Counted from the stretch's first letter, positions 19,525-58,539 are shown. The stretch is 64,000 bases of DNA from an uncultured archaeon (GCA_964613955.1 CAZTJN010000001.1:97656-161655); one strand, 5' to 3'. Numbers and translations are program-made. The notes: a model not told the origin generated them from the letters alone.

Positions 19525-20571
19525 ATGCTCTCCCTGATAAAACCGGTTCTAAGGACAAAGATAAACAGGAGACTCGGAAGGTTCAACTTTCCCTATAAAT
19601 TAAACCTTCACGTAACCTATGCCTGCAACCAGAGATGCAAAACCTGCTTCATATGGGAGAGGTACAGAAAAAAACCCGAACTTATAAGAAGGGAACTGAA
19701 TATAAATCAATGGAAAAGGTTTTTTGAGAAACTTGGCGAAAATCTTTACTGGATTTCCATTTCAGGGGGCGAACCTTTCATCAGGGGGGATTTGCCCGAA
19801 ATAATTTCTTCCATAAATACCAAAAATTTATGCATACTGAGTGTCAACACCAACGGGCAATTGACAGAAAAGATATACAATATAGTAAGAGAATTGCTTG
19901 ACACAGTTCCGGAAAATGTCAAGGTTTTCCTCGCTGTGAGCCTTCTCGGAAAGGAGGATACCCACAACTTCATTTCAGGAAAAAAAGACGCCTTCAAAAC
20001 ATCAGAAAAGACATACAAAAAACTTAAATCTTTACAATCCAGACACAAAAACTTTTACCTTGAAAGGGAGCTCGTTGTAAACAAAAACAACCTTGATGAA
20101 ATATATGAGGTAGTCGAAAAACTCAACAAAGAGAAAATTCCGTTCACCATTACATTCTCCCAAGAATCTGAATATTACGACAACGTAGGAAAAAATGTCG
20201 GTCTGACCCCCGAGGAAAGAAAAAGGACCGCTAAAATCCTCAAGAACCTGAGAATTCCCCTGTACCAAAAAGCGGATTTTATCAAACACATTTTCAAAAA
20301 AAATGCAATCAGATTTTTTGAAAGAGGTGAAATTCCTAAATGCTATTCTTCATGGTGCTCTGTCAGGATAGATCCCTATGGAAATGTCTACCCTTGCATC
20401 ATGAGAAACGATAAAATAGGCAACCTTACGGAAAATGACATGGACCTAGAGAAAACGCTCCTAAAAGGCGATATACTTAGGATACAAAAACTTATAAAGG
20501 CAGGTAAATGCAACTGCTGGACGCCGTGCGAGGCCTACCACAACATTGTACAAAACTTCCCGTTTCTATAG
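19525..20571 (+). CDS. Radical SAM protein with SPASM/twitch-like C-terminal auxiliary-cluster domain
   Basis: 'CNQRCKTC' is the CxxxCxxC radical SAM motif. C-terminal 'CYSSWCSVRIDPYGNVYPC...CNCWTPC' Cys array. Confidence 0.8.
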   Translation: MLSLIKPVLRTKINRRLGRFNFPYKLNLHVTYACNQRCKTCFIWERYRKKPELIRRELNINQWKRFFEKLGENLYWISISGGEPFIRGDLPEIISSINTKNLCILSVNTNGQLTEKIYNIVRELLDTVPENVKVFLAVSLLGKEDTHNFISGKKDAFKTSEKTYKKLKSLQSRHKNFYLERELVVNKNNLDEIYEVVEKLNKEKIPFTITFSQESEYYDNVGKNVGLTPEERKRTAKILKNLRIPLYQKADFIKHIFKKNAIRFFERGEIPKCYSSWCSVRIDPYGNVYPCIMRNDKIGNLTENDMDLEKTLLKGDILRIQKLIKAGKCNCWTPCEAYHNIVQNFPFL

Positions 20572-20574
20572 CAT

Positions 20575-21906
20575 TCAAATCCTCAAAACAGTTTTCAGGA
20601 GGGTGAAGAACATTTCATAGTCACCCTTCCGGAAAAGGGTTTGCGTGTTTAAAACATAATTTAGGTAGTAGTATGCAAACTTCAAGTCGATATCAGGGAT
20701 CCTTGAAAAATTATGGTTTTTTGAAAAATTAAATTCTATCCATCCCTCTGTTGAACCGGGCAGGTGGAAGCCATTCCTTAGTACGAAATTGTACAAAGCG
20801 GTTCCGGGATATGGCTGATAAAATCCAGCGTAAAGCACACTTTTCAGTCTCTTTGCCAGTTTAAGTGTTTTGGAAAGGTCCCCCCTTGTTTCCGTCGGGA
20901 TGTCAATCATGAAGGAGGCAACAGACCTCAGGCCTATCTTGTTGCAGAAATCAAAAATATCAACAATTTGTTCAGTGTTCGTTCTTTTGTTTAGGAAGTC
21001 TAGCATCCTCTGCGAGCCTGATTCCACTCCGAAAAATATGTATTCGCAACCGTTTTCTTTGAAGGTTTTGAGCATTTTCTTATTCGCATCGGTAACCCTC
21101 AGTTGACACCCCCATCTCACGTCATGTGTTTTGAAAAGGTGTGACAGCTTTATTGCCCTCCTCATATCAGTCCCGACAAAGTTATCTTCATAATCAACTT
21201 TCAAGGCCTCGATTTTTGGGTAAGAAGATAGGAGATTCTCCAGATTTTCTCTCACCCTTCCCAAAGAATATGCCCTCCAACCTTCGCGGTAAAAAACCTT
21301 ATTGTAGCAGAAGTTACAGTTGTACGGACATCCGCGGGAAGTCGGCAAGGCCATTGTCTTCAAACCACCAATCCACCTGAAAGCATAATCATTGATATTA
21401 ATAATGTCCCAAGGTATGGGAGGCAGAGAATCCAGTTTTTTAATTGGGCTTTCTGAAATGTTGGATATTATTTTCCCGTTTTTCTTGAAAATAACCCCCT
21501 TTACCTTCTTGGGATTTTTCAGATTCTTTAGCAGGTCATTAAAGGCAATGTCCCCTTCCCCGACAACAACAAAATCTACATAATCCTCCTTTATTACCTG
21601 ATAAGGGAGGAGGGAGGGGTGAACACCACCCCAAACCACTTTCGCTTGTGTATTTTCCTTTGAGAATTTCGAAATCTCAACACAGGATTTTAACGATTTT
21701 CCGGTCCAGCTGGTAAGTCCCATTACATCAGGGTCGGTTTTTTTTATTATTTTTTTTGCTGTTTCTACCGATATTTTATTGCAATCCAAGATCTCAACAT
21801 CGTTGCCTTCTTTGTACGGCAGCGCCGCTATCTGCATGAGCCCCAGAGGTATAGATGGGACTTTACCGGGAAATTTTGTTTCCGGGTTTACGAGCAATAT
21901 TTTCAT
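20575..21906 (-). CDS. B12-binding domain radical SAM protein (class B)
   Basis: N-terminal Rossmann-like B12-binding region 'MKILLVNPE...LGLMQIAALPYKEGNDVEILD...DVMGLTS', then 'TSRGCPYNCNFCYN', the CxxxCxxC motif. 443 aa. Confidence 0.85.
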   Translation of the reverse strand: MKILLVNPETKFPGKVPSIPLGLMQIAALPYKEGNDVEILDCNKISVETAKKIIKKTDPDVMGLTSWTGKSLKSCVEISKFSKENTQAKVVWGGVHPSLLPYQVIKEDYVDFVVVGEGDIAFNDLLKNLKNPKKVKGVIFKKNGKIISNISESPIKKLDSLPPIPWDIININDYAFRWIGGLKTMALPTSRGCPYNCNFCYNKVFYREGWRAYSLGRVRENLENLLSSYPKIEALKVDYEDNFVGTDMRRAIKLSHLFKTHDVRWGCQLRVTDANKKMLKTFKENGCEYIFFGVESGSQRMLDFLNKRTNTEQIVDIFDFCNKIGLRSVASFMIDIPTETRGDLSKTLKLAKRLKSVLYAGFYQPYPGTALYNFVLRNGFHLPGSTEGWIEFNFSKNHNFSRIPDIDLKFAYYYLNYVLNTQTLFRKGDYEMFFTLLKTVLRI

Positions 21907-22966
21907 TTTTCCTCCTGAGTACGGAGTCGAAAACTATGTTTAATTCTTCCTGGCAGTTCCATACACATTCTTTGCAGTTCAGTAAGTTCAAACGTAAAGT
22001 TTCATATAACTCTGAATACCAGAAATCCTTGATATTGAGGTTGTGGATATTTCCTATTTTCTTCCCAAGTTCAAACATACCAAAGCAGGGATAAATATCC
22101 CCATTCGAATCTATTACCACTGTTAAAAATCCAGCCCCGCATGCCCTTGACCTTTCTCCTTTGAGAATAAATTTTTTAATTGTTTCCAGGTATTTTTCAG
22201 TGTTGTCTATAATTCCCTTCTCCCTCTCTATGTTTACTATCTTGTTCACTATTTCCTCGAGTTTGTTTTTTTGACATTCAGAGAAAGAGAGGGACTTCTT
22301 CATGTTAAAATTGTGCACCGGTATGAAACCTATATTTTTAATCCCGAGATTACTCAAGAAGTTCACGGTTTCTAGCAGCCTATCCAAGGTTTGGGGGGAT
22401 AATAAAATATTCACGGTTATCCTTGTTTTGTTGTTGGAAACATTTAACAAATTTTTGATTCCTAGAACCGCTTTGTCGTGCGCACCTTTTATTCCCCTCA
22501 ACCTATCGAAAATTTCAGGATCATCAGAATCCAGCGAAACCGATATTGTATCAACACCAATTTCAGTTATTTTTTTTGCCACAGAATTTGTTATTAATGT
22601 TCCGTTGGTGGATATATCCAAAAACATACCTTTGCCTTTTACGTAATTCATAATTTCGAACACGTCCTCCCTCATGAGCGGCTCTCCTCCTGATATGGAT
22701 ATAGTTGTAACACCAAGTTTTTCGAGATCATTAACCAACCTGAATATTTCTTCTTTTGACATTTCGTTGTTTTTGTATTTCCATAAATTGCACATTTCGC
22801 ACCTCAGATTGCATCTTCTGGTGAGAATCAAGATCGCAAGCAAAGGCGGATGTTTTATTTTCCAGTCCCTGAGAGAAAAATAGGTGCGTATAAAATTAAG
22901 GGATTGTTTAAATCCCTTTGTGCTTAAAAAATTTTTCCGTGCATAAGCTTTGTATTTTTCCCTCAT
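21863..22966 (-). CDS. Radical SAM protein with SPASM/twitch-like C-terminal domain
   Basis: 'LTRRCNLRCEMCNLW'. C-terminal 'CGAGFLTVVIDSNGDIYPC...CKECVWNC'. Overlaps the downstream B12-rSAM gene by 44 bp. Confidence 0.8.
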   Translation of the reverse strand: MREKYKAYARKNFLSTKGFKQSLNFIRTYFSLRDWKIKHPPLLAILILTRRCNLRCEMCNLWKYKNNEMSKEEIFRLVNDLEKLGVTTISISGGEPLMREDVFEIMNYVKGKGMFLDISTNGTLITNSVAKKITEIGVDTISVSLDSDDPEIFDRLRGIKGAHDKAVLGIKNLLNVSNNKTRITVNILLSPQTLDRLLETVNFLSNLGIKNIGFIPVHNFNMKKSLSFSECQKNKLEEIVNKIVNIEREKGIIDNTEKYLETIKKFILKGERSRACGAGFLTVVIDSNGDIYPCFGMFELGKKIGNIHNLNIKDFWYSELYETLRLNLLNCKECVWNCQEELNIVFDSVLRRKNENIARKPGNKISR

Positions 22967-23103
22967 TCAAAGACCTTTTAAAATAGTGGAAGTGAATTTT
23001 AAATAAAGAACTCCACCAGTCTTTGAATGGTGGATGATAGAAATCATATTCAAGGGCGTGACCTAGAAATCATACACCATCATGCTACCGGAGAATGTAA
23101 AAA

Positions 23104-23281: not shown

Positions 23282-24844
23282 TTAATCCACGATTTTGTAG
23301 AGACGGGTACACCCTTTCTCTTCAACAAGTGCGAGCGTATGATTCTTTTTCAGCTGATCGAAAATCAGTCTCCCGTATCCGAAAAACGTGGTATCGCACA
23401 TAGTATGGTTTACGTACAGGTAGTATTTCCCTCCCTTGTTTCTGCATCCTGAAAAAGAGGAAGTTAGATGTTTATCAGGCAACAATATTTTCATAACCAT
23501 TTCTGGGGAAGACATGCAATAATTTGACTGGGAGCTCTCGAAAAGCAAACAATCGTTATCCTTCACATAACTTCCGAAATGGATTATATTATCAATAAGA
23601 CAGTCGTCTTTTTCGAAGACGAAAACGTTCGTGCTTGAATGAAACAGTAATAATATTAAAATCAATACCACGAAAACGCCTGTAGTTCTAACCATATGCG
23701 GTATCCTGAAGGGAAATCTATTCTCCACAGTTCGCTCAACCAAATCCTTTGCTTTGAAAATACCGTAGCCCATCAGGATCGCCAGTGCTGGCTGCAGTGT
23801 TAGCTGATATAACTGCGGGTTGGTGTAAAGTGTTGCCCAGTACAGACCGTAAAAAAGAAAAAAGAATGCCACCCACGAAAACAGGAATATGAGACTGCGT
23901 TCTTTTGATACAAAAAGAAGAGAAAACAAAAGAAAGGCATAGAGAATGGTGGGATAAACATAGGGTTTTGCCAAATTTGAAGAAAGATGATATTGAACGT
24001 TTGGTATTAAGTACCCCAAGGAAAATGTTACAGGCCGTTCCTCATAATGAGGGTCTCTTGCCGGACCATAGATATTATCACCTATAATGTAATAGTAGCT
24101 GACAGGTATCATGAAAATCAAGAATATAAGCAAAGGGATTTTCAATTTTTTAATCTGGAATTTCTTCCTGTTTAAAATGAAATCCATAATGAACAAAGGT
24201 ATGAATATGGAATTGTCTGTTCTTACGTGGAGAGAAAACACGAGGAGCAGTAGGAAGAGAAGGTAAAGACCCCTCTTTCCTGCCTTAATCGAAATGAAAT
24301 ACATGAGAAATGTTAGCATGATAAAAAAGACGGACGTTACCTCGCTTGCATTGAGTTTTGCAAGGATAACAGACATGGGAAAAAGAGAGTATATCAAGGA
24401 GGAAAACAAAGCCACATAGTCCCTCTTGAAAAGAATATATGCGAGAAGAAAAATCATCAAAATAGTTAGCGAGCTCAGGAGCAGGTTAAGATAGAGAATG
24501 ACATTGTAGTTTGAACCAAACAAAAAGAAACCCGCTGCCATCAGTAAAGAATACCCTTTGGGGTGCCAGAAATCCTCCACAATCTGGTTTTCCAGCATAT
24601 TTACAGATGTTTTCACATAACTCCAGCAAAGCCCGTTGGGCGAGCTACATCCTGGGGAAGTGAATCTCAAATACGAACCCAAAAGAAAAATTAAAATGAA
24701 TGCCACCCAGACATGTATTTTTATTTTTCTGAAAAAAGAGGCAATATTTCTTATGTTGGCCAAAATCAATACACAAATCAAAACAAAGTTAATAAGTAAT
24801 ATGTAAAGTAAACTGCCGGAAAGGAAAGACTGAAAATCAAACAT
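23282..24844 (-). CDS. GT-C fold membrane glycosyltransferase, PMT/ArnT-like (GT39/GT83 family), paralog group A
   Basis: 520 aa. N-terminal polytopic domain (10 or more TM helices) plus C-terminal soluble domain ending '...LYKIVD'. The TM2 region 'KIKIHVWVAFILIFLLGSYLRF' is shared with five other paralogs. Confidence 0.6.
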   Translation of the reverse strand: MFDFQSFLSGSLLYILLINFVLICVLILANIRNIASFFRKIKIHVWVAFILIFLLGSYLRFTSPGCSSPNGLCWSYVKTSVNMLENQIVEDFWHPKGYSLLMAAGFFLFGSNYNVILYLNLLLSSLTILMIFLLAYILFKRDYVALFSSLIYSLFPMSVILAKLNASEVTSVFFIMLTFLMYFISIKAGKRGLYLLFLLLLVFSLHVRTDNSIFIPLFIMDFILNRKKFQIKKLKIPLLIFLIFMIPVSYYYIIGDNIYGPARDPHYEERPVTFSLGYLIPNVQYHLSSNLAKPYVYPTILYAFLLFSLLFVSKERSLIFLFSWVAFFFLFYGLYWATLYTNPQLYQLTLQPALAILMGYGIFKAKDLVERTVENRFPFRIPHMVRTTGVFVVLILILLLFHSSTNVFVFEKDDCLIDNIIHFGSYVKDNDCLLFESSQSNYCMSSPEMVMKILLPDKHLTSSFSGCRNKGGKYYLYVNHTMCDTTFFGYGRLIFDQLKKNHTLALVEEKGCTRLYKIVD

Positions 24845-24884
24845 CCAGACACCACTATTGTTTTAGCGTCTCAGAAATTAAAAG

Positions 24885-25313
24885 TTAATAGTCTATCCCT
24901 ATCTTATCGCTGACCTGGTTCATTTTGCTCTTATAGCATTCTCCCGAACAGCACCATTCAATCGAAAACACACGAATATCGACATCCCCTTCACAGGGAA
25001 TCAGTTTCAACACGCCTGTTTTCCCGCTTTTTAACGGTTCAGTCACACTGAAATCTGCCGGCAAAGTTATGTTGGTTTCGACCCCGAACGGGACAACTAT
25101 TTTTATACTCGTTATATCCTTCCGGTTCGGGTTATAGAAAGGGACTGACAAGTAACCATCGATACACTTTCCTTGACCATATTCTATTGAACAGGAGGGA
25201 TTATAAGAACTGAAATAATCTTCCCAGTATAATCTCACTAGTGACACCAAAAATACTGCTACCAATATGATAAAAAAAAGTTTTCTTAATTTGTTGTATT
25301 TCATCTCTTTCAT
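24885..25313 (-). CDS. Small membrane-anchored Cys-containing protein (142 aa)
   Basis: N-terminal TM helix 'LFFIILVAVFLVSLVRL', then an extracytoplasmic domain with 7 Cys. Confidence 0.4.
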   Translation of the reverse strand: MKEMKYNKLRKLFFIILVAVFLVSLVRLYWEDYFSSYNPSCSIEYGQGKCIDGYLSVPFYNPNRKDITSIKIVVPFGVETNITLPADFSVTEPLKSGKTGVLKLIPCEGDVDIRVFSIEWCCSGECYKSKMNQVSDKIGIDY

Positions 25314-25427: not shown

Positions 25428-26022
25428 TTATTTCAAATTCTCTGAAAGTTTCGAGCTCGAACTTCTCGTGCATTTCTTCACACAGATATAAGAAAAGAGA
25501 CTCAATAACGCGAAAAATACAGATGTTGTGTTAGATTCAATACTATTTGAAAGTAATATGTGCAGACGAAACAGAGCAAGCAAAAGAGCAGAGTAAAGAC
25601 CTGTCTCCTCTTTTTCAAAAAGAAGGCAGGCAACAAGGAAGATTATGATAACAGAAACAGCACCAAAAAACATTCACAGAGTAAAACACACCAATACTTG
25701 ACCCGAAAATCAAAAAGATAACCGAGAGCAGGAATGGATAAGAAATAGATTTCTCAATGGCCAAGTGGATATCACCCTGCAGCATACCTCTTGCAGCTTT
25801 CCCGCAGCCGTACTAATCATGAACCGTGAAGAAAATGTTTGGGAACATCTCCATGAGAAGAAGGGACAGGGCAACGATTACGATAAGTATAACCCATGTA
25901 GATTTTCTTATTTTTGACAGCTGTTTTCCTATATCTTTAATGTTAAAAATAAACAAAACAATTAGTAATGAAAAACAAACCGATAGCAATAAGACGTAAA
26001 AATGCGAAAGCTACTCAAACAT
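25428..26022 (-). pseudogene. Decayed 5' remnant of a GT-C paralog (group A) with in-frame stops and internal deletions
   Basis: Minus-strand translation from the ATG at 26022 gives 'MFE*LSHFYVLLLSVCFSLLIVLFIFNIKDIGKQLSKIRKSTWVILIVIVALSLLLMEMFPNIFFTVHD*Y...YPFLLSVIFLIFG', continuing in ORF 25428-25673 as '...EETGLYSALLLALF...TTSVFFALLSLFSYI'. These align with intact paralogs, for example 39193: 'LNLKDIKNQFHKIDKKVWAFLLVIFLFGFSL...YPFLIMLSYSIFG...KREEIGLYSAILYAM...SVSVFFIALAVLAYL'. There are TAG stops at codons 4 and about 66, and roughly two-thirds of the gene is missing. Confidence 0.55.
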
Positions 26023-30859: not shown

Positions 30860-30867
30860 ATAAGTTT

Positions 30868-50349: not shown

Positions 50350-51267
50350 ATGATGTATGTAGTAACAGGCGGTTCTGGCTATATAGGACGTCAGCTCGTC
50401 AAAGATATTCTGAATAAAGGCGGAAGGGCAATAAACATAGACAAGAAAGAACCTCTTGAACCCGTCAAAGGAGAAAGGTTTATCAAGTGCGACCTAACGG
50501 ACAAAAGGAAAGCAAGAGAAACCATAAAATCCCTTGAGCCCGAAGGAGAATACGTTGTGATACATCTTGCTGGTTTGTTCGAGAAGGACGTAAGAAAAAG
50601 GAAACACTGGAAATTCGAGGATTTTCTTTCCATGAACGCCACCACAACAAAGAACCTAGTGGATGGACTGAACGAACAAACTTTCGACATCAAATCATTC
50701 ATCTTTTCCTCTGCCGCCTTGGTTAACTGCTTGGGAAAAATAAATGATTTTTACCCGCGTTCGAAGCTAAAGGCCGAAGAATTTATCAGGAAAAATCCGC
50801 CTTCTGCCTCCACCCACATACTCAGGGTCAGCAGGGTCATAGGAGGGCTTGACAACGGGAAAGTCTCGAAGGACATCGTAAGCGACTTCATAAAAAAATT
50901 CCTCTCCGAAGATGAAATTGTTTTCAAGGGCTCGAACATAAGGAGGGATTACATCCATTTGAATGACGTATGCAGGGTGATTCTCTCCCAGATGGAAAAT
51001 GGCCTGCATATAAAGAATGTTTATTCTTCAGAACAGGTGCAGATGAGAATAATAATTGAGATGATTCATGAGGCATTGCTGAAGAGAGGGCTTATCCAAA
51101 AGAAACGAAAAATCACCTTTCAGGAAGATATTGACAATCCTCTACCCCAGATAGAGGGCAGAAGCGATTTTTCCGGCATTCTTGAATGCAAGACCTCTGA
51201 AGATGTTGTAAAAAGGACGATAGATGAATATATCGAAGCCATGAAGAAAAACATCCCTTTCAAATAG
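50350..51267 (+). CDS. NAD(P)-dependent epimerase/dehydratase-family protein (extended SDR)
   Basis: 'MMYVVTGGSGYIGRQLVKDIL' Rossmann motif. Catalytic 'YPRSKLKAE' YxxxK. 305 aa. Confidence 0.7.
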   Translation: MMYVVTGGSGYIGRQLVKDILNKGGRAINIDKKEPLEPVKGERFIKCDLTDKRKARETIKSLEPEGEYVVIHLAGLFEKDVRKRKHWKFEDFLSMNATTTKNLVDGLNEQTFDIKSFIFSSAALVNCLGKINDFYPRSKLKAEEFIRKNPPSASTHILRVSRVIGGLDNGKVSKDIVSDFIKKFLSEDEIVFKGSNIRRDYIHLNDVCRVILSQMENGLHIKNVYSSEQVQMRIIIEMIHEALLKRGLIQKKRKITFQEDIDNPLPQIEGRSDFSGILECKTSEDVVKRTIDEYIEAMKKNIPFK

Positions 51268-51301: not shown

Positions 51302-52609
51302 ATGAGCAGGATTGTTGTTCTGGGAGGAGGTATCGCGGGTCTTTCCACTGCCTATTTCCTTGCGAAAGCCGGCATGAAACCAATCGTCTTGGAGAAGGAG
51401 AAGGAAGCGGGCGGTCTCGGATTCTGTCACAGTGTCGGCGATATGTTTATAGACAGCGGATATCACATCATTTTCAAAGGTGACGAGTATCTCCTGAATC
51501 TTTTGAGGGAGCTGAATTTAGAGAAAGATATTGTATGGGGAGACCTTGATTTTAAACTGGTCACCAAGAAAGGAGATATATTTTTCTCCCCGCTTAAAAT
51601 ATTATCAAGCATATGCCTCTCTTTATCCGAAAAAAAGTTCCTTGCGAAAATTTACTTCAAAATGAAAAACACAAAGGACTGGAAATCCCTCGACAAATTC
51701 ACAGCGAAAGAGTGGATAATAAAAAACAGCAGCGGTGATGTATACAAAGATATATTCGAGCCGATAATAAAGGCAAAATGGGGAAGGGATTCGGACAAAG
51801 CTTCTGCCGCATGGTTCTACGGTAGGCTTAAACCGCGTTCTAAATCCAGGAATATCTTCGGAGGAGGGGAAAAGGCAGGATACCTCAAAGGCTCTTTCAA
51901 AAATCTTTTTTCCGTTCTTGAAAGAGAAATAAAAGGTAGGGGAGGGGAAATAATAACATCAGCGAAGCCCACGAGGATATCCATAAAAAACAAGAAAGTC
52001 GTGTCAGTCAAGTATCGTATAAACAAAAACCTGAAAGAAATGAGAACAGACACTCTAATCAGCACCATCCCTGTTGGAGAGCTTCTGAGGATTGCAAAAT
52101 TGCCTGAAGATTTTGAAAGACAGGCAAGAAAATTAAAATACAAAGCTGTGATATGCGCAGTATTCAGCCTGCGGAAAAAAGTGACGAATTCTTTCAGAAC
52201 GATATTTTCTGAAAGGAGGTCCTTCGGCGGTCTTGTCGAGCTCACGAATCTCATAGACAAAAAACATTTCGGCGGTAAACACATACTTTACGTTTTCAAT
52301 TTCCTCAATGCCGAAGAAAGTTTATGGAAATTAGGGGACAAAGAAATTATTGAAAGATACATGAACGATCTCGAAAGGCTCTACTCTAGTTTCAAGGAAC
52401 AGATAATCTGGTATAGATTATACAAAAATCAGTACGGGGAGCCCTTTTATCAAAAAGACTACCTTAACATAATGCCGGATACCAAAACACCTGTAAAGGG
52501 GTTATTCTTAACGGGCATGATACACTCTTATCCTGTTTCTGATTTCAACAACATAGTATCACTAGCCAGCAAAACAGCTGACTTGGTTTTAAGGGAGGTA
52601 AGATGTTGA
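51302..52609 (+). CDS. FAD/NAD(P)-binding oxidoreductase (amine-oxidase / phytoene-desaturase-like fold)
   Basis: 'MSRIVVLGGGIAGLSTAYFLAKAGMKPIVLEKEKEAGG' is the dinucleotide-binding GxGxxG...E motif. 435 aa. Confidence 0.7.
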   Translation: MSRIVVLGGGIAGLSTAYFLAKAGMKPIVLEKEKEAGGLGFCHSVGDMFIDSGYHIIFKGDEYLLNLLRELNLEKDIVWGDLDFKLVTKKGDIFFSPLKILSSICLSLSEKKFLAKIYFKMKNTKDWKSLDKFTAKEWIIKNSSGDVYKDIFEPIIKAKWGRDSDKASAAWFYGRLKPRSKSRNIFGGGEKAGYLKGSFKNLFSVLEREIKGRGGEIITSAKPTRISIKNKKVVSVKYRINKNLKEMRTDTLISTIPVGELLRIAKLPEDFERQARKLKYKAVICAVFSLRKKVTNSFRTIFSERRSFGGLVELTNLIDKKHFGGKHILYVFNFLNAEESLWKLGDKEIIERYMNDLERLYSSFKEQIIWYRLYKNQYGEPFYQKDYLNIMPDTKTPVKGLFLTGMIHSYPVSDFNNIVSLASKTADLVLREVRC

Positions 52610-53718
52610 GCAGAAAGACGGCCCTCTCTATTCTGAAGGGGGTGCTAACGAAGAAAACACCCATTTACGTGCAGTTCGCAGTCACAAAAAGATGCAATTT
52701 GAACTGCAGAATGTGTGGCATAGTGAAATCATGGAAAAACGAAAAGGATTTGGACCTGGATGACGTGGAAAGGGTAGCGGATATTCTCTACAAGCTGAAC
52801 ACAGGCATGGTGATATTTACTGGAGGGGAGCCCTTTTCAAGAGATGACCTCCCGGAGATTGTGAAAATCTTCCATGAAAAAGGCCTGAATACAAGGCTGC
52901 AGACAAACGGGACATTGTGTACAGAAGAGAATGTCAAGGAGGTGGTAAAATCCGGCCTCAATGATATTTCAATATCTTTGGATTCACTGAGCCCGAAAGT
53001 TCAGGACAGTATAACCAATATGAAGGGTTCATGGGAAAGAACAATAAATTCCATATCCTTGTTTTCCCGCATGATGCCCAAGAAAAATTCCATGCCTATT
53101 ATAAACTGCGTTCTTTCGAAAAAGAACATAGCGGAAATCGAAAAAATGGTAAAATTCGTAGATAAAATAGGATTCTATCTTTCCGTTATTCCCGTACATC
53201 TCTTGAAAGAGCGAAGCGAAAGATTCGCCTTCAGGGGTTATGAGAATTCGATGGGTTTTTCGGAAAGGGATTTTGATTTGATAGATCGGACATATTCGAA
53301 ACTCATAGAGATGAAAAGGAAAGGATTTTCCATATACAACTCCCTGAAGTTCCTGAGGGAGAGCCCCGGGTTCATTAAATATCAAATATGCAGATGGAAG
53401 TGTTATTCTCCGTATCTCTATTTCTCTATTTCGCCAAGCGGCCTGTTCTCCCCGTGCATAGATTTACGAACAGATATATCAATCTTGGATGACAGGTTCC
53501 TCGAAATTTATAGGTCAAAGGAATTTGAAAAGAGAATTTCAAGGCAGGTCAGCCAGTGTTCGGGATGCATGTACGGCTGCTGGCCGGAGATTACGTATCT
53601 CTGCGAAGATGTGAAGGTTTTTATAAAGAGGATTTCGGAAGGTCTGAAAATTCTTGGCAGGAAAAGGAAAGGCTTCGATTACGATAGCATTATAAAAATT
53701 ATCAATTCAATATCATAA
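52603..53718 (+). CDS. Radical SAM protein with SPASM/twitch-like C-terminal domain
   Basis: 'AVTKRCNLNCRMCGI'. C-terminal 'CRWKCYSPYLYFSISPSGLFSPC...CSGCMYGCW'. Overlaps the upstream gene by 7 bp and abuts the downstream GT-C gene. Confidence 0.8.
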   Translation: MLSRKTALSILKGVLTKKTPIYVQFAVTKRCNLNCRMCGIVKSWKNEKDLDLDDVERVADILYKLNTGMVIFTGGEPFSRDDLPEIVKIFHEKGLNTRLQTNGTLCTEENVKEVVKSGLNDISISLDSLSPKVQDSITNMKGSWERTINSISLFSRMMPKKNSMPIINCVLSKKNIAEIEKMVKFVDKIGFYLSVIPVHLLKERSERFAFRGYENSMGFSERDFDLIDRTYSKLIEMKRKGFSIYNSLKFLRESPGFIKYQICRWKCYSPYLYFSISPSGLFSPCIDLRTDISILDDRFLEIYRSKEFEKRISRQVSQCSGCMYGCWPEITYLCEDVKVFIKRISEGLKILGRKRKGFDYDSIIKIINSIS

Positions 53719-53719
53719 A

Positions 53720-55450
53720 ATGCTCGGACTTGTTTACAAATTTCTGGACCAGAATATCCTGATTTTCATGTCCATACACTTTGCACTTTTGCTGCTGTTT
53801 CTCGCGCTAAATTTCAAAACAATCGTGAAAGAATTTTCAAGAATAAACAGAAAGGCATGGGCAATATTGCTGGTGATATTCCTGGTTGGTTTTTTCCTAA
53901 TGAACGCCGAATACTGGTATGGAGAACATACGGACGCTTATGCTCCTCTAGAAACTGCCAAGTTTCTGGTTCTGGAGGGGAAAAACGTGAAGGCCTGCGC
54001 TGCAGGACGGGCTGGTTACTGTTCGTCATACCAGCAGGTTCTTCAGCCGGTTGGGTTCCCTTATCTGATATCAATTTTATATATGATCTTCGGGATAAAC
54101 ACGCTCCCTGTTTTGGTGTTTTCAGGTGTATTAAGCTCGCTTACCACAATTCTCGTATTTCTCATATGCTATCTGTTATTCAAAAAGGAAGAAGTTGGAT
54201 TATATGCATCCCTTGTTTATGCTTTGATACCCCTTAACATATTTTTCTCAGGAACAGGATTCACAAGGATCATTTCTTTGTTTTTTGTTGGCTGCACAAT
54301 CTTGGTTTACTTGGTCACTATAAAGAAAAATAATCTTCGTTTATGGATGCTCTTTGTGCTGTTCCTTTCTTTTTCCATTTACATAAGGCAGGAGAATTAC
54401 GTTCTCATCCCTTTGTTTGTCTTGGGGTTGTTTTTGTTCAGATATAATTTAAAAAACAGGGACAACATGAAAAAGCTTTTCATAGCCGCTGTGGTGTTCA
54501 TAATTTTCCAGTTACATGTATTTTACTGGACATTCTTCATAATTGCATATGCATTTGTCCACCCTGTTGGATTACCGACATACTCCCTTGCTTGTCTTTT
54601 TAAAGTGAGCCCTTACATTCTCAGTTTCATGCTGGGGTTCCCCTTCTACCATATATCCAATGCATACAATTTAGCAGCAAGTTCGCTGTTTATTATAGGA
54701 ATTGCCCTCATACCGGTTTCCCTTTTAATGAAAAAAGACCATGCCAAGGGGTCTTTGTTCACGGCTGTTTGGTTTGTTTTGTTTTTTGTTATTTACGGGT
54801 CCTATTGCATGAACTTCGTTAACGGGCTTTCCCGAGACCCGGATACAAGCTTTGTCAGGTATATAATTCAATTCCATGTTCCATATGCCATACTGGCAGG
54901 ATATGCATTTTATATGATAACTAAATTTGGTAAAAGGATAAGCAGGTACGCAAATTTTGTATTGGTTCCGATTTTCGTTATTCTTTTGCTTATGTCAATC
55001 CAGTTCCCAACAACCATGTTTAAGGATGCGAGGACAGATCATGACAGCAAGTATTTCTCAGCCATAAAGAGGACGCCTCCGAATTCGACCATTATAACAC
55101 AGATGTTCATGATGGTGTCATCAGATGTAGTTGGAGGAAATAGAAAGTATATATCTCCCGAAGTAATGGTTCTGCACGGAACACCTGAACACACGATTAA
55201 GTTGCTGCATGAAAGCAAAGATGTCTATTACATAGAGCTGGACTATTGTAAATACGACCCAGATCATAATCCATGCAAGTTCATAAGGGAAAATCTGGAC
55301 CTCGAGTTTGCTTTCAGGGAAGGCCCCCTGAATGTCTACAAAGTTTTAGTGAAACCTGATAAGGACTACATCATTGAGTGGATTCATTCCCTGTACAACG
55401 TTACCGTGAGATCAAACAAAATTGTAAATATGACTGTGAGTGAATTATGA
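53720..55450 (+). CDS. GT-C fold membrane glycosyltransferase, PMT/ArnT-like, paralog group A
   Basis: 576 aa. 'SRINRKAWAILLVIFLVGFFLM', 'KKEEVGLYASLVYALIPLNIFF', and C-terminal 'GPLNVYKVLVKP'. Confidence 0.6.
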   Translation: MLGLVYKFLDQNILIFMSIHFALLLLFLALNFKTIVKEFSRINRKAWAILLVIFLVGFFLMNAEYWYGEHTDAYAPLETAKFLVLEGKNVKACAAGRAGYCSSYQQVLQPVGFPYLISILYMIFGINTLPVLVFSGVLSSLTTILVFLICYLLFKKEEVGLYASLVYALIPLNIFFSGTGFTRIISLFFVGCTILVYLVTIKKNNLRLWMLFVLFLSFSIYIRQENYVLIPLFVLGLFLFRYNLKNRDNMKKLFIAAVVFIIFQLHVFYWTFFIIAYAFVHPVGLPTYSLACLFKVSPYILSFMLGFPFYHISNAYNLAASSLFIIGIALIPVSLLMKKDHAKGSLFTAVWFVLFFVIYGSYCMNFVNGLSRDPDTSFVRYIIQFHVPYAILAGYAFYMITKFGKRISRYANFVLVPIFVILLLMSIQFPTTMFKDARTDHDSKYFSAIKRTPPNSTIITQMFMMVSSDVVGGNRKYISPEVMVLHGTPEHTIKLLHESKDVYYIELDYCKYDPDHNPCKFIRENLDLEFAFREGPLNVYKVLVKPDKDYIIEWIHSLYNVTVRSNKIVNMTVSEL

Positions 55451-56853
55451 GGGTAATGCTGATAAGGTATCACAATATTGGTAACATAAATACAAGGTTA
55501 CCGGAGAGCATAAACAGAGTCCAAGGCGTATACCCGCCTCTGGGAATAGCATATGTGGCTTCCACTTTGGAGAAATTTGGCCACGATGTTCGCATTCTCG
55601 ACAGCAGGGCACTGAACTTAACGGCAGAGGAAACAAAGAAGCACATAGAAAAATTCAACCCAGATGTCGTCGGAATTACGTGCATGAGCTCCACCATAAA
55701 GGGTTCACTTGAAGCTGCGTATCTGACCAAACAAGTTTCGAATGGTATAGTAACCGTTATGGGAGGTCCTCAGGTATTCATATACCCCAAAGAAACGATA
55801 AATTACGATTTTGTGGATTTCGGCATTGCTGGAGAAGGGGAAATAATAATGCCCGAACTTTTGGAAGCATTGGATGGCAAGAAGAAACTTGGAGAAATAG
55901 ATGGGCTGGTTTACAAGAAGAACGGGATAAAGTTCAATCCTGCAAAAAGATATGTCAAGGATCTGGATTCTTTGCCATTCCCTGCAAGGCATCTCTTACC
56001 CAATTACAAGTATTTCTCGATACTTTCAGACCATCCTTTCACAACCCTTATAACATCGAGGGGTTGTCCGTTCAGGTGCGGTTACTGCTTCAGAAAAAAA
56101 CTGGACAGAATTGTAAGATACAGAAGCGCGAAAAATGTGGTTGATGAAATACAGTACTGCCTAGAGAAATGGAAATTCAGGGAAATCTGGTTTTACGATG
56201 ACACGTTTACGATGAACAAAAGACATGCCGCGCAAATATGCAAAGAAATAATAGACAGGGGACTGGATTTTAAATGGGAGGCCGTCACAAGGGTGGATTG
56301 CGTTAGCAGGGGGATGCTCAGATTGATGAAAAAGGCAGGTTGCAGAATGGTGAGATACGGGATTGAAAGCGGAGATCAGGAAACCCTCAATATCATGAAA
56401 AAGGGAATAACATTAGAGCAGGCAAAGAAGGCAACAAAATGGACAAGGGAAACAGGAATGGAAAGCTTTTGTTTTTTTATGATAGGTTATCCTAATGAAG
56501 ACGAGAAAAAAATAAAAAACACCATAGATTTCGCAAAAAACCTTAACATAGACTGGGCGATGTTTTCCAATGTCACCCCCTACCCTTCCACGGATTTGCT
56601 TGAACTCGCCTACGAGAAGGGTTTACTGAAAGACAGGGAATACTGGAGGAAATTCACACTCGGGAAAACGAATGAAAGAATACCATACGAATTTCCTGAT
56701 ATGGATAGGTGGGTGAAGAAGGCATATAAAAGTTTTTATCTGAGACCAGGATTTGCAGCAAAAACATTATTTAAAATAAAGAGTTTAAGACAGGTAAAAA
56801 AATACCTTTTAGGCTTGTATGCCATTTTGAATTTCAAAACGTTTAGCTCATGA
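55447..56853 (+). CDS. B12-binding domain radical SAM protein (class B)
   Basis: 'LGIAYVASTLEKFGHDVRILD...DVVGITC', then 'TSRGCPFRCGYCFRK'. 468 aa. Overlaps the upstream GT-C gene by 4 bp. Confidence 0.85.
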   Translation: MRVMLIRYHNIGNINTRLPESINRVQGVYPPLGIAYVASTLEKFGHDVRILDSRALNLTAEETKKHIEKFNPDVVGITCMSSTIKGSLEAAYLTKQVSNGIVTVMGGPQVFIYPKETINYDFVDFGIAGEGEIIMPELLEALDGKKKLGEIDGLVYKKNGIKFNPAKRYVKDLDSLPFPARHLLPNYKYFSILSDHPFTTLITSRGCPFRCGYCFRKKLDRIVRYRSAKNVVDEIQYCLEKWKFREIWFYDDTFTMNKRHAAQICKEIIDRGLDFKWEAVTRVDCVSRGMLRLMKKAGCRMVRYGIESGDQETLNIMKKGITLEQAKKATKWTRETGMESFCFFMIGYPNEDEKKIKNTIDFAKNLNIDWAMFSNVTPYPSTDLLELAYEKGLLKDREYWRKFTLGKTNERIPYEFPDMDRWVKKAYKSFYLRPGFAAKTLFKIKSLRQVKKYLLGLYAILNFKTFSS

Positions 56854-56856
56854 GTC

Positions 56857-58539
56857 TTATGAACTCGTTGTAATTTTATAAAGAGTTAAATTGAAATCAC
56901 CAAACTCATATTCTAAGTATGGCTGAAGTTCAAATTTTTCATGCATTTCCCTGCATTGGGAAACAATTTTTCGCCTCAGTTCTTCGCATGTTTCAAAGGA
57001 TTCGTTCTCGATACCGCATCTGTTACCCAGGCTGTAAAAATCCGTACAGTACAAGTCTTTGAAGTAAAAAACACACCCTCTGTTTCCTGTAACATCCTGT
57101 AACATTTCTGGTTGTTTAAGAACCGATTCGGTTGGTATAGCTTTTAGATCAGTTGCTGAGAAAAATACAGGCTCCTTTGTCACAACATAACATGAATCTA
57201 TTTCCCTGTCTATCATATCTATAACTTCCATTTCTTTGTATTCTATCTCCCCCCTTGGGTATCCGTGATTAACATTAAGCGGCTTGGGGTCGTTTTGCAC
57301 AGCATAAAAATAGGGAATGGATAAGAGAAATAAAAGCAGAACGAAAAAAGTCGGGACTATTTTTGTTATTACTTTCTGTCGGGCAATTTTGTGCGGCATG
57401 GAAAGTGCAAATTCTTCAAACGCATAAAACCCAAGACCTGCAAAACATAACAACGGAACGAGACCAGTTATTAGATATTTCTCAACTATGCTGGCGGAAT
57501 AGGCAAGGTATGCAAACATATAACAGGAGAAAAATATGGCCAGGAAGAGGGCTTCCTTCCTGTGTTTTTTGAAACCGTAAAGCAAACCGGCAAACAAAAA
57601 CACATTTATCAGCAGAGGATAAAAGCTACCATTCATTGCCTTGGCCAGAACTTGGGCATTCATAGGTATGTTTTCCATCCTGATCAATTTCCCTTCAACT
57701 ACCGTCGCTGTGGATTTCCCGTAAAGTGCGGGATAAATCTCCAAGGACAAATGCAAGATATGCGGGATTACCAGTATCGTTAAAAGAAGGACAAGAAACC
57801 AAAGCCTTTTATTTTTGATTGCGGATTTGAGCGTTTTTGCATCAAGGAATAGGACAGACAGCAGCAACACCAGCGGTATTAACAGAATATCTTCCTGTTT
57901 TATGGAGATCGAGAAAGCGAGGATGCTTGTTGCAAAAATACCGATTTTCAAGTCCCTTATTTTGAAAAAGAGGAGGAAGGCAGTGAACGTCAGCAAGATA
58001 AAAAAAGCGGACACAGTGTCTGGTTCTATATTTCTTGAAAGTAATATGTACAATGGAATAATGGAAACAATGAATGCGCTGTACAGCCCTGTTTTCTCGC
58101 TTTTGAAAAGGAGGAAGCAGAAAAGGAAAACAACTACCACAAGGAGGGAGCCCGTTACGATGTTTACCATGTATGCAGAATTTTCGTTTATACCGCCGAA
58201 GAGAAGAAATAAAGCCACAACGTATGAAAATCCAACAGGCTCATTGAAGACTGCCCTACCAGATGTGATGATATCCCTGGCGACCTGTACATGCGCGAAT
58301 TCATCCCCATACGTTGTCAGGTAGACAGGAGTAATAAGCCTCAAGGATAACGCAAGCAAAAATATGAATATAAGTATAACCCATACGGATAATCTAATCT
58401 TAAAATATTTTTTTATTTCGCTATAATCAAGAGCAAAAAAAATTATCGCAAGCAAAAAACTTATCGTGAAAGACAGAGGGAGGAGTGTGGGTAAAAAACC
58501 CCTGCTCCCTTCCAATAAACTTGTGACGATTTCCAGCAT
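56857..58539 (-). CDS. GT-C fold membrane glycosyltransferase, PMT/ArnT-like (carries a GT39/GT83-type 'DE' loop motif), paralog group A
   Basis: 560 aa. The first extracytoplasmic loop 'TTYGDEFAHVQVARDIITSG' matches the DE..(Y/F)A..A motif of Pmt/ArnT enzymes. 'KSEKTGLYSAFIVSIIPLYIL'. C-terminal 'NLTLYKITTSS'. Confidence 0.65.
   Translation of the reverse strand: MLEIVTSLLEGSRGFLPTLLPLSFTISFLLAIIFFALDYSEIKKYFKIRLSVWVILIFIFLLALSLRLITPVYLTTYGDEFAHVQVARDIITSGRAVFNEPVGFSYVVALFLLFGGINENSAYMVNIVTGSLLVVVVFLFCFLLFKSEKTGLYSAFIVSIIPLYILLSRNIEPDTVSAFFILLTFTAFLLFFKIRDLKIGIFATSILAFSISIKQEDILLIPLVLLLSVLFLDAKTLKSAIKNKRLWFLVLLLTILVIPHILHLSLEIYPALYGKSTATVVEGKLIRMENIPMNAQVLAKAMNGSFYPLLINVFLFAGLLYGFKKHRKEALFLAIFFSCYMFAYLAYSASIVEKYLITGLVPLLCFAGLGFYAFEEFALSMPHKIARQKVITKIVPTFFVLLLFLLSIPYFYAVQNDPKPLNVNHGYPRGEIEYKEMEVIDMIDREIDSCYVVTKEPVFFSATDLKAIPTESVLKQPEMLQDVTGNRGCVFYFKDLYCTDFYSLGNRCGIENESFETCEELRRKIVSQCREMHEKFELQPYLEYEFGDFNLTLYKITTSS

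Follow-up and report, generated by a model that had tools for sequence, protein, structure and literature searches.

A candidate cell-envelope glycosylation island with interleaved GT-C glycosyltransferase and radical-SAM genes in an uncultured archaeon

Gene content of the island

The window, the whole 64,000-nucleotide stretch of DNA analysed here, comes from a tiny, symbiotic DPANN archaeon, probably of the Aenigmarchaeota. A 46-kb island (18.3-64 kb of the window) holds eight GT-C (PMT_2) genes interleaved with 11 radical-SAM genes, accompanied by four GT2 genes, one flippase-like gene, sugar-nucleotide tailoring enzymes and one ferredoxin-domain protein. Seven of the eight GT-C genes adjoin a radical-SAM gene, an arrangement only marginally non-random within the island (permutation P = 0.044). 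An earlier note on this DNA listed the GT-C, GT2 and flippase toolkit but did not mention the radical-SAM genes, which are the main feature; this dominant conserved association alters the probable product of the system.

Five of the radical-SAM genes are of the B12 type (20575..21906, 26064..27413 and 45774..47201, all on the minus strand, and 40889..42271 and 55447..56853 on the plus strand) and three of the SPASM type. Radical SAM/SPASM proteins are encoded at 21863..22966 (-) and 30721..31971 (+); the latter has a 400-aa ortholog in locus L004 and probably starts further downstream than listed. The protein at 19525..20571 (+) matches Radical_SAM above cut-off (48 bits) and SPASM just below it (20.5 vs 21.5), and the one at 52603..53718 (+) matches Radical_SAM at 97.1 bits with a sub-threshold, HpnH-like DUF3463 match in its C-terminal part (25.1 vs 31.3). 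The ~300-aa radical SAM at 61188..62117 (-) belongs to the type with the most repeats in CPR and DPANN clusters; its HxsC4-like score is 169 bits (cut-off 500). A ~320-aa protein at 62684..63649 (-) is of the same broad type. The solved relatives are suggestive of sugar chemistry. AprD4, an aminoglycoside sugar diol-dehydratase, is among the closest for 40889 (E 3.6e-23) and is also matched by 55447 (E 1.8e-24), and BlsE, a cytosylglucuronate decarboxylase, is closest for 61188 (E 4.3e-13), but these similarities are mostly to the generic core, and the SPASM and HxsC-like similarities are equally compatible with peptide maturases. No radical SAM, GT2 or GT-C protein of the island reaches a curated NCBIfam equivalog cut-off. 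A DUF362 protein with a 4Fe-4S ferredoxin domain (47194..48339, -) is a candidate electron donor to the radical SAMs.

Profile matches bear out the four GT2 genes named earlier. The proteins at 18312..19088 (+; Dpm1/ArnC/AglJ-like, Glycos_transf_2 E 1e-36, with ArnC, PgfS and AglJ as best NCBIfam matches, each below cut-off), 27489..28187 (+; Dpm1/ArnC-like) and 33893..34633 (-; Dpm1/PgfS/AglJ-like) are soluble. The pair of C-terminal TM helices typical of GtrB, ArnC and AglJ is found only in the fourth (residues 231-249 and 260-278), which is AglJ/Dol-P-hexose-transferase-like (35742..36602, +; AglJ 126 bits vs cut-off 325). As a set, the four come closest in NCBIfam to ArnC, AglJ, PgfS, PpgS and Dol-P-hexose transferase, and two of the genes (27489 and 33893) lie 8-10 bp from a GT-C gene. 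Of two proposed UPF0104 flippases, the one at 38221..39156 (-), downstream of GT-C_39193, is well founded, since it matches LPG_synthase_TM (PF03706, E 4e-41) and passes the TIGR00374 'flippase-like domain' model (90.6 bits vs cut-off 43.2). The other, at 48336..49142 (-), is an orphan 8-TM membrane protein: neither Pfam nor NCBIfam matches it, it does not resemble 38221, and its close homologs number only three. Its role as a second flippase is therefore unsupported. GT2 enzymes with one flippase-like protein make a three-part lipid-linked-sugar system the natural reading; with half as many GT2 genes as GT-C genes, however, the donor toolkit is not one-to-one.

DegT aminotransferases, SDR epimerases and NodU/TobZ-type carbamoyltransferases are classic sugar-tailoring enzymes. 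The island encodes a DegT/PseC-type sugar aminotransferase (34637..35710, +; PF01041 E 1e-99; best matches PseC, LegC and ArnB, each below cut-off), an SDR sugar-nucleotide epimerase/dehydratase (29918..30859, +) and a second SDR epimerase/dehydratase-like protein (50350..51267, +). A NodU/TobZ-type carbamoyltransferase recognised by Pfam (58542..60254, -) is intact and exceeds its listed ORF; in tblastn the L004 ortholog aligns stop-free over residues 4-571. An FAD amine-oxidase/phytoene-desaturase-like oxidoreductase of the PRK07233 family lies at 51302..52609 (+; NF005560 343.9 bits vs cut-off 252). The DUF483 protein at 60318..61187 (+), a recurrent partner of ~300-aa radical-SAM genes, has a fold without a solved relative. 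A small membrane-anchored Cys-rich protein (24885..25313, -) gives its name to the x24885 family, a soluble 544-aa protein (36604..38238, +) starts 1 bp after GT2_35742 and has only weak Pec_lyase and Ulvan_lyase_N matches and no PDB match, and a NosD-like beta-helix surface protein, with a signal at its N-terminus and an anchor at its C-terminus, is encoded inside the island (49322..50242, +).

Upstream, at 913..17932 (-), are nine surface proteins predicted to be secreted or anchored, with beta-helix, CARDB and laminin-G domains. They had been described as sequon-rich, which is true of some (x7783 has 25 sequons vs 9.6 expected), but others contain no sequon at all. On this circumstantial evidence they are possible acceptors of glycosylation.

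The GT-C proteins

All eight GT-C genes are present exactly where they had been placed, and every protein matches Pfam PMT_2 (PF13231), six of them exceeding its gathering score (26.1 bits). These are 23282..24844 (-; 35.2 bits; ~9 TM helices and a 112-aa C-terminal domain), 32238..33884 (-; 30.7 bits; lacking an additional N-terminal helix; 8 bp downstream of GT2_33893), 39193..40836 (-; 52.5 bits), 42288..43976 (+; 38.0 bits; 16 bp downstream of B12-rSAM_40889; 66% identical to its L004 ortholog), 53720..55450 (+; 43.7 bits) and 56857..58539 (-; 54.3 bits, and 33.4 bits to PMT PF02366; 2 bp downstream of the carbamoyltransferase gene). The two below it, 28198..29880 (+; 16.7 bits; 10 bp downstream of GT2_27489) and 44011..45777 (+; 18.3 bits), align to a GT-C family profile in hhalign with probabilities of 99.5% and 99.1%. 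Structure searches, with a model of one of the eight (39193), and profile searches did not place these proteins elsewhere, so their identity as GT-C membrane proteins stands. Each carries a C-terminal extracytoplasmic domain.

Some of the motifs in the earlier note are more restricted than described. The conserved C-terminal strand, [LVI]-Y-x-[IVA], is real, and only five alignment columns are invariant, that of its Tyr among them. The TM2 'K-x-W' motif, said to be common to six proteins, was found in four of them, and the strict 'E(E/K)xGLY(S/A)' motif, also ascribed to six, in three. The loop-1 hallmark of 56857 is a classic 'DE', its 'YGDEF' aligning with 'YDEDIY' of homologs. Of 20 aligned family members, 18 keep the loop-1 Asp and all have the Y-I-R-Q-E motif, but 39193 and 23282 (N/G at this position) lack the Asp; these two may be inactive, or another residue may take its place.

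The 'paralogous expansion' of the earlier note would suggest local duplication, which is not supported. The eight proteins share only 15-27% pairwise identity and fall into two deep groups, group B with 32238 and 42288 (27% identical) and group A with the other six, between which there is no significant BLAST similarity (best cross-group score 28 bits). The copies are therefore ancient and the expansion is not recent. At least 23282, 42288, 53720 and 56857 have closer relatives of their own in other genomes. The note also missed a degraded, frameshifted ninth copy at about 25455..26010 (-), of which the N-terminal ~200 aa are left as ORF fragments in two reading frames (tblastn with four paralogs, E 4.65e-07 to 2e-14, residues ~8-210).

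Conservation in related loci

The association with radical SAMs extends well beyond this genome. Related loci with this GT-C subfamily come from DPANN archaea and CPR bacteria and thus from two domains; each of the 12 that span 15 kb or more has 6-11 radical-SAM genes within 10 kb, and independent Pfam annotation gave 12 for L038, 9 for L039 and 8 for L041. GT2, DUF483 and carbamoyltransferase genes are also frequent in loci of the subfamily. Two sub-arrangements recur, rSAM-DUF483-GT-C and GT-C-B12rSAM-GT2; a B12-rSAM of the 55447 type directly follows the GT-C gene in L005, L007, L016 and L018, and the GT-C/LPG_synthase_TM pair seen here as 39193/38221 is found again in L037. In most related loci the GT-C gene is matched best by GT-C_53720, the 'core' type of the DPANN and CPR clusters. 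The gene starts 1 bp past the end of rSAM_52603 and shares 4 bp with B12-rSAM_55447, and such overlapping or nearly abutting codons imply co-expression. The association is not universal, as family member P0150 has housekeeping genes as neighbours and no radical SAM close by.

The number of paralogs varies between relatives, as had been predicted. The close relative L004/L023, 58-85% identical in amino acids across shared genes, has three GT-C genes where the syntenic stretch of the window has six, and lacks three blocks holding GT-C_32238, GT-C_39193 and GT-C_44011. The window-specific genes have a lower GC content (0.358 vs 0.402, P = 0.005).

Possible products of the island

We favour, with a probability of roughly 0.55 for the explanation as a whole, an island for cell-envelope glycosylation, with a three-component extracytoplasmic system whose donor sugars would be tailored by radical-SAM enzymes. 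At the cytoplasmic face, the GT2 enzymes would load single sugars from nucleotide sugars onto dolichyl or polyprenyl phosphate. The nucleotide- or lipid-linked sugars would then be modified by cytoplasmic enzymes: the B12-dependent, SPASM and ~300-aa radical SAMs might carry out C-methylation, deoxygenation, decarboxylation or ring rearrangement, with the DUF362-ferredoxin protein as reductant, and the aminotransferase, epimerases/dehydratases, FAD oxidoreductase and carbamoyltransferase would work beside them. The flippase-like protein, and perhaps also the orphan 8-TM protein, would flip the lipid-linked donors to the outer face. There each GT-C paralog would deliver one particular modified sugar to an extracellular acceptor bound by its C-terminal domain. 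Surface proteins, pilin-like proteins, growing glycans and lipids are all conceivable acceptors. There are precedents in three-component systems whose donor sugar is diversified by auxiliary epimerases and whose GT-C enzyme has a C-terminal carbohydrate-binding module (PMC11127046), and in calditol synthase, a radical SAM converting a lipid-bound hexose (bioRxiv 10.1101/2023.10.20.563219).

It is conceivable, though unlikely, that the radical SAMs instead modify, in the cytoplasm, a ribosomal peptide or small exported protein which the GT-Cs glycosylate after export, giving a RiPP-like or pilin-like surface product and not a tailored glycan. Among the best NCBIfam matches of the radical SAMs are HxsC/HxsC4, maturases of sactipeptides and ranthipeptides, and RiPP C-methyltransferases (ApyD, rSAM_ocin_1), but the scores are far under the curated cut-offs (HxsC 92 bits vs 268). 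Small Cys-rich proteins with a membrane anchor (the x24885 family, and 19081-19467) are kept beside rSAM_61188-type genes in L005, L007, L018 and L039; with 140-150 aa and an N-terminal anchor, however, the x24885 proteins are unlike typical RiPP precursors, and the two largest intergenic gaps of the window hold no short precursor-like ORF. HxsD-annotated and prepilin-peptidase-like (Peptidase_A24/Arc_PepC) genes in L034, L039 and L041, and PilM/PilO flanking L038, would fit such a product, whereas the conserved DegT, SDR epimerase, carbamoyltransferase and GT2 genes indicate sugar chemistry.

Less probable still is a remodelling of membrane lipids, in which Tes/Hbs/Grs/Hgm/HpnJ/HpnR-like radical SAMs and the FAD desaturase-like enzyme would modify isoprenoid or acyl lipids, and the GT-Cs would add sugars to outer-leaflet lipid head groups. 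ArnT glycosylates lipid A, PimE acts on PIMs, and DPANN and CPR organisms scavenge host lipids. The B12-rSAMs score best against HpnJ, BchE, HpnR and 'lipid biosynthesis B12/rSAM' models, and the SPASM types against AhbD-like models, the source group of the H-GDGT bridge synthase; yet these scores too are far under cut-off (HpnJ at most 209 bits vs 578, Tes 38-61 vs 450). The HpnH-like match of 52603, whose best PDB match is the GDGT/macrocyclic archaeol synthase (E 2.5e-12), the phytoene-desaturase/HpnE-like family of 51302 and the fact that LPG_synthase_TM is MprF's lipid-flippase domain point the same way. Against this, the cluster occurs in archaea and bacteria alike, though their membrane lipids are chemically unlike, and four GT2 enzymes, an aminotransferase, epimerases and a carbamoyltransferase exceed the needs of simple head-group glycosylation.

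That GT-C, GT2 and radical SAM are independent functions gathered in a recombination-prone surface/accessory region, with no common pathway, is the least probable reading: the gene content and GC differences, the decayed GT-C copy, the high divergence of the eight proteins and the marginal adjacency would agree with it, but not the co-occurrence in 12 of 12 long loci from two domains, the recurring sub-arrangements and the near-abutting start and stop codons around GT-C_53720.

For the glycosylation system that we prefer, the unlike gene content of close relatives suggests that the island diversifies the surface glycan. Full-text literature searches gave no account of such a GT-C and radical-SAM glycosylation system, and the combination, in ultra-small archaea and bacteria, points to an undescribed route to a heavily modified surface sugar coat.

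Family, groups and fold of the eight transferases

The eight GT-C genes claimed in the earlier note, here called by their start coordinates (23282, 28198, 32238, 39193, 42288, 44011, 53720 and 56857), are all open reading frames at precisely those positions. The encoded proteins all match PMT_2 (PF13231) in Pfam, six of them above the gathering score of 26.1 bits (23282, 35.2; 32238, 30.7; 39193, 52.5; 42288, 38.0; 53720, 43.7; 56857, 54.3) and two below it (28198, 16.7 bits; 44011, 18.3 bits). Against a family profile built from 20 sequences, 28198 and 44011 gave hhalign probabilities of 99.5% and 99.1%. The PMT model PF02366 was passed by 56857 alone, with 33.4 bits against a cut-off of 22.7, and had no match in the other seven. 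When 56857, 53720 and 42288 were compared with NCBIfam, no curated ArnT or Pmt model was matched, and the single match was a weak one of 56857 to Agl23, whose 35 bits fall well short of the cut-off of 126.

The identity among the eight is 15–27%. All-against-all BLAST divides them into group A (23282, 28198, 39193, 44011, 53720 and 56857) and group B (32238 and 42288, which share 27% identity), with no significant similarity between the groups and a top cross-group score of 28 bits. Hydropathy gives 9–12 transmembrane (TM) segments followed by a soluble C-terminal domain of 112–178 aa, and the six members of group A have an additional N-terminal TM helix ahead of the canonical first one. A recent local expansion is not borne out; at least four paralogs (23282, 42288, 53720 and 56857) have their closest relatives in other genomes, which implies that the set was put together from old lineages and that recent duplication at the locus was not its source. 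The remains of a ninth GT-C gene lie near 25455-26010 (minus strand), where a frameshift leaves two reading frames that match residues ~8–210 of the intact paralogs; 'K.TW' and 'EETGLYSA' are kept, but the C-terminal two thirds are missing.

The conserved C-terminal strand that had been described is real, [LVI]-Y-x-[IVA], and the Tyr in it occupies an invariant column, of which there are five. Of the two motifs said to be common to six of the proteins, the Trp motif is present in four and the strict GLY motif in three. In the loop after the canonical TM1, 18 of 20 aligned family members have D-[GEA]-[YIF], the classic 'DE' version being found in 56857 and a sub-branch, and Y-I-R-Q-E is kept by all aligned members. 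In group A an acidic residue of this loop, judged from sequence a putative counterpart of the catalytic one of ArnT and Pmt, is seen as Asp or Glu in 28198, 44011, 53720 and 56857, but not in 39193, which has Gly, or in 23282. Group B has a conserved Asp directly behind TM1, 'NW(Y)D', likewise a putative counterpart.

The family profile gave nothing meaningful against all PDB chains, and a comparison of folds was therefore needed. An AlphaFold2 model of 39193, with the family alignment as input, had a mean pLDDT of 81 and a pTM of 0.87, and in Foldseek all its matches at ranks 1–34 were GT-C-fold proteins. The predicted polytopic membrane domain is that of the GT-C fold, and the reading of these proteins as GT-C enzymes survives, profile and fold searches agreeing and neither another family nor a lack of GT-C topology being found. 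Compared with GT39 (Pmt1/2/4, bacterial Pmt) and ArnT (GT83), the identity is 10–17% over structural alignments, the C-terminal domain is different and the MIR domain is absent. Oligosaccharyltransferases are among the top Foldseek matches; nonetheless an identity as such an enzyme (STT3/AglB/PglB, GT66) was rejected, as WWDxG is absent from all eight proteins and from any frame of the window.

Donor-side and radical SAM genes of the island

The GT-C genes are encoded together with GT2 and flippase-like genes. All four GT2 genes claimed earlier (18312, 27489, 33893 and 35742) were confirmed; in NCBIfam they come closest to ArnC, AglJ, PgfS, PpgS and Dol-P-hexose transferase without reaching an equivalog cut-off, and only 35742 has a C-terminal TM pair. 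Of the two proposed flippases, one is kept as a candidate: 38221 is an LPG_synthase_TM protein (PF03706, E 4e-41) that passes the TIGR00374 'flippase-like domain' model and differs in type from GtrA, Wzx and MATE. The other, 48336, was rejected as a UPF0104 flippase at the sequence level, since it has no family match, is unlike 38221 and has three close homologs only. From the fold and the adjacent GT2 and flippase-like genes, the donor is predicted to be a polyprenyl-phosphate-linked sugar at the outer membrane face.

Eleven radical SAM genes, overlooked by the earlier note, are interleaved with the GT-C genes. They are B12-binding (20575, 26064, 40889, 45774 and 55447), SPASM-type (21863, 30721 and 19525, the last with a SPASM match just under the cut-off) or of other types (52603, 61188 and 62684). 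Of the eight GT-C genes, seven have a radical SAM gene as a direct neighbour, where 4.3 would be expected (P = 0.044). The gaps between the radical SAM gene 52603, the GT-C gene 53720 and the B12-binding gene 55447 are 1 and -4 bp, and the GT2/GT-C pairs 27489/28198 and 33893/32238 are spaced by 8–10 bp, which implies co-expression; GT-C gene 39193 lies 36 bp from 38221. Among solved proteins, AprD4 (E 1.8e-24 and 3.6e-23) is one of the nearest relatives of the radical SAM proteins and BlsE (E 4e-13 and 5.5e-12) another, with the similarity mostly within the shared radical SAM core, and curated family cut-offs were reached by no radical SAM protein of the island. These sequence relationships are at most suggestive of radical chemistry directed at sugars.

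Further genes of the island encode a DegT/PseC-type aminotransferase, two SDR epimerase/dehydratases, an FAD oxidoreductase of the PRK07233 family, a NodU/TobZ-type carbamoyltransferase, a DUF362-ferredoxin protein, a beta-helix surface protein and DUF483. The carbamoyltransferase (58542-60254, minus strand) is listed as 507 aa with a TTG start. It is not truncated, the frame being open to 60254, and with about 570 aa it aligns with residues 4–571 of the ortholog in the related locus L004, so that the true start would be an unlisted or unusual codon. A fold search with DUF483 gave no informative match, the literature found for DUF483 concerned only unrelated DUF483x families, and protein x36604 had no PDB or PHROG match. 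The DUF362 protein, a fusion with a 2x[4Fe-4S] ferredoxin (47194-48339, minus strand), overlaps the B12-binding gene 45774 by 8 bp and is a plausible candidate for a dedicated reductant of the radical SAM enzymes.

The listed start of the SPASM-type gene 30721 (30721-31971, plus strand) overlaps an epimerase gene (29918-30859, plus strand) by 139 bp; its L004 ortholog has 400 aa as compared to 416, and the real start is therefore probably downstream. The two terminal radical SAM genes are separated by 566 bp, and this gap contains a 113-aa ORF (62318-62659, plus strand), apparently a C-terminal fragment left from a SAM-dependent methyltransferase; intact methyltransferases were seen alongside three related clusters (L034, L035 and L041).

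The combination recurs in archaea and bacteria

Species-representative genomes and metagenomes were scanned with the 39193/53720 sub-family, using a 5-sequence alignment as query. Loci were found in DPANN archaea (Iainarchaeum, Aenigmatarchaeota and unnamed archaea) and in CPR bacteria (Falkowbacteria and Portnoybacteria), as well as in MAGs labelled Saccharibacteria or Gammaproteobacteria. With ORFs annotated against the window proteins, each of the 12 loci that are 15 kb or longer has 6–11 radical SAM genes within 10 kb of the GT-C gene, and often also GT2, DUF483 and carbamoyltransferase genes; the sub-arrangements rSAM-DUF483-GT-C and GT-C-B12rSAM-GT2 are repeated among them. Precomputed Pfam annotation of four loci, checked separately, gave the same picture: 12 Radical_SAM genes with PMT_2 and DUF483 in L038, nine with two PMT_2 in L039, eight in L041, and two PMT genes with B12-rSAM, SPASM, two Carbam_trans, DegT and LPG_synthase_TM in L037.

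The link between GT-C and radical SAM genes is frequent but not universal. Assembly GCA_017610325.1 has two members of the sub-family, one isolated among housekeeping genes (L040) and the other amid the eight radical SAM genes of L041, which shows that the association is specific to the locus and not a trait of every family member. The sub-family comprises about 708 clusters (50% identity, E <= 1e-30) among 1.84 billion representatives. Homologous clusters lie in a chromosomal context, adjoining ribosomal and RNA polymerase genes in CP070809. A viral or mobile-element origin was without support: no sub-family member was found in IMG/VR and there was no significant PHROG match (one marginal, E 3.8e-4).

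The nearest relatives carry the label Aenigmarchaeota/Aenigmatarchaeota. The GT-C protein of one of them (L011) is 71% identical to 53720, and a DUF483 homolog shows 67% identity. The close relative represented by L004/L023 is syntenic with the window from 29.9 to 64 kb, with 58–85% aa identity across the shared genes, and lacks three blocks: GT-C gene 32238; GT2 gene 35742, x36604, LPG_synthase_TM and GT-C gene 39193; and GT-C gene 44011, the B12-binding gene 45774, DUF362, x48336 and NosD. The variation in paralog count that had been predicted between relatives was thus seen. Window-specific genes have a GC content of 0.358 against 0.402 (P = 0.005), a comparison confounded by membrane-protein composition. 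GC content also changes along the window, from 45–53% in the upstream surface-protein genes (1-18000) to 29–45% in the island (18000-64000), and the most AT-rich genes of the island are among those absent from L004/L023 (LPG_synthase_TM, 0.294; 39193, 0.327; 32238, 0.330).

A proposed pathway and its alternatives

The most far-reaching reading, with a probability of roughly one in four, is that the GT-C sub-family, the ~300-aa, SPASM and B12-binding radical SAM proteins, DUF483, GT2 and the carbamoyltransferase make up a single ancient pathway, exchanged between CPR and DPANN and elaborated here into eight transferase steps. Its product would be a surface glycoconjugate without precedent, C-modified by radical chemistry and built up extracellularly from lipid-linked donors; it would be peculiar to ultra-small episymbionts and central to host attachment or evasion. 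In the mechanism that we favour, as somewhat more likely than not, the GT2 enzymes would load monosaccharides onto dolichyl or polyprenyl phosphate. The radical SAM enzymes, in the cytoplasm and alongside the aminotransferase, epimerases, oxidoreductase and carbamoyltransferase, may tailor nucleotide-linked or lipid-linked sugars. The flippase-like protein would translocate the donors, and each GT-C would then add one specific sugar to an extracytoplasmic acceptor bound by its C-terminal domain. Candidate acceptors encoded upstream are predicted secreted or anchored proteins. Some of them have excess sequons (x7783, 25 against 9.6 expected; NosD3245, 29 against 19.3) and 18–22% Ser+Thr, others have zero sequons, and as far as composition tells this fits a role as glycan acceptors.

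Another possibility, which we find unlikely, is that the cluster matures peptides or proteins. The radical SAM proteins have SPASM, HxsC-like and RiPP-methylase similarities, but with scores below threshold: 61188 reaches 92 bits against a cut-off of 268 for HxsC and 169.5 against 500 for HxsC4, and 62684 reaches 86 against 268. Membership in a His-Xaa-Ser (Hxs) or RiPP maturation system is not supported by these scores, and no convincing RiPP-like precursor ORF was found in the window's two largest intergenic gaps; the many sugar enzymes also speak against this alternative. Consistent with it are conserved small anchored Cys-rich proteins and the HxsD and prepilin-peptidase genes of related clusters. 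The former make up the x24885 family, with a member in the window (24885-25313, minus strand) that has an N-terminal membrane anchor and a Cys-rich domain, and others at L005:3436-3891, L007:14731-15189, L018:14688-15143 and L039:14486-14926. These proteins of ~145 aa share the pattern C.[IL]EYG..EC...IPF.NP...WCC and belong to no Pfam family, their genes in other genomes directly adjoin radical SAM genes of the 61188 type, and they could be acceptors or accessory subunits. No alignment was obtained between x24885 and the HxsD-annotated protein of L039.

Another small Cys-rich protein with an anchor, of 128 aa (19081-19467, minus strand), outside the listing of ORFs of at least 150 aa, is encoded between the GT2 gene 18312 and the radical SAM gene 19525 and resembles a 150-aa ORF at L039:9548-10000 ('C.ADVAE...CE.I.DPD.K.FCVA.V..N.T.C'). 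In related clusters (L034, L039, L041 and L038) there are also Peptidase_A24/Arc_PepC genes, which are prepilin/preflagellin-peptidase-like, and small proteins annotated as HxsD, and one CPR locus has PilM/PilO. There are hints here of a link between the related clusters and type IV pilin-like surface proteins.

That the cluster instead remodels membrane lipids seems improbable. The HpnJ, HpnR, Tes and AhbD-like similarities, a desaturase-like FAD enzyme and the ArnT-like structure would agree with it, but the scores are very low and the cluster occurs in archaea and bacteria alike. An incidental variable island is very doubtful, given the cross-domain conservation and start and stop codons that overlap or nearly abut.

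The proposed glycosylation system resembles known three-component systems (GtrA/GtrB/GtrV of O-antigen glucosylation, ArnC/ArnEF/ArnT, Haloferax AglD/AglR/AglS and Citrobacter PPPRS/MATE/GT136) in that GT2 genes for putative polyprenyl-phosphate sugar synthases and a gene for a candidate flippase accompany GT-C transferases predicted to act outside the membrane, and in a GT-C with a C-terminal soluble domain, which in GT136 is a carbohydrate-binding module. Known systems include auxiliary epimerases by which the donor sugar is diversified, and a GT-C with such a C-terminal module (PMC11127046). Unlike these systems, the island packs eight GT-C paralogs from two deep groups, with four GT2 genes, into a single locus of a reduced genome, and it has an LPG_synthase_TM protein as its candidate flippase instead of GtrA, Wzx or MATE, an extra N-terminal TM helix in six of the eight GT-C proteins, and a setting within a conserved set of 6–12 radical SAM genes. 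We know of no described three-component system with such a set. The mycobacterial and corynebacterial enzymes (EmbA/B/C, AftA-D, PimE, MptA-C and Pmt, with decaprenyl-phosphate sugars) likewise comprise many GT-C paralogs that act stepwise outside the membrane and build a complex glycan from lipid-linked monosaccharides, with the donor modified while lipid-linked (DprE1/E2), and AftA, AftB, AftD and Emb are structural matches of the 39193 model. However, their genes are scattered on the chromosome, the proteins are larger, radical SAM enzymes are not involved, and no sequence similarity to the GT-C family profile was detectable.

For the B12-binding and small radical SAM proteins the nearest solved or curated families are AprD4, BlsE and HpnJ, with scores far under the family cut-offs. 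HpnJ is a precedent for radical reactions whose substrate is a lipid-attached sugar, and to our knowledge none of these three enzymes, nor the calditol synthase Cds, feeds a GT-C transferase. Cds offers a second precedent, as a radical SAM enzyme by which a hexose bound to a lipid is remodelled (bioRxiv 10.1101/2023.10.20.563219). We found no description of a cluster of GT-C and radical SAM genes in full-text searches of the literature, and the paper on Aenigmarchaeota genomics is silent on radical SAM enzymes and on glycosyltransferases.

Taken alone, eight PMT_2 genes would be a modest curiosity; more interesting, and easier to test, is the partnership with radical SAM genes that CPR and DPANN have in common. 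The genomes of DPANN archaea and CPR bacteria measure ~1 Mb, these organisms rely on host-cell contact, and their surface chemistry is, as far as we know, almost unknown. Eight sugar transferases of the extracytoplasmic side and eleven radical enzymes, sensitive to oxygen and demanding in cofactors, take up at least 46 kb, which implies that the product must matter to the organism. The island and its related loci are a source of uncharacterised radical SAM enzymes with sugars as possible substrates, and if they act on peptides or lipids instead the conserved cluster would still be an undescribed system. If the proposed mechanism is true, the three-component glycosylation paradigm would be widened to donors tailored by radical chemistry. 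The partnership of GT-C and radical SAM genes in both domains of life gives a concrete, testable handle on the surface biology of episymbionts.
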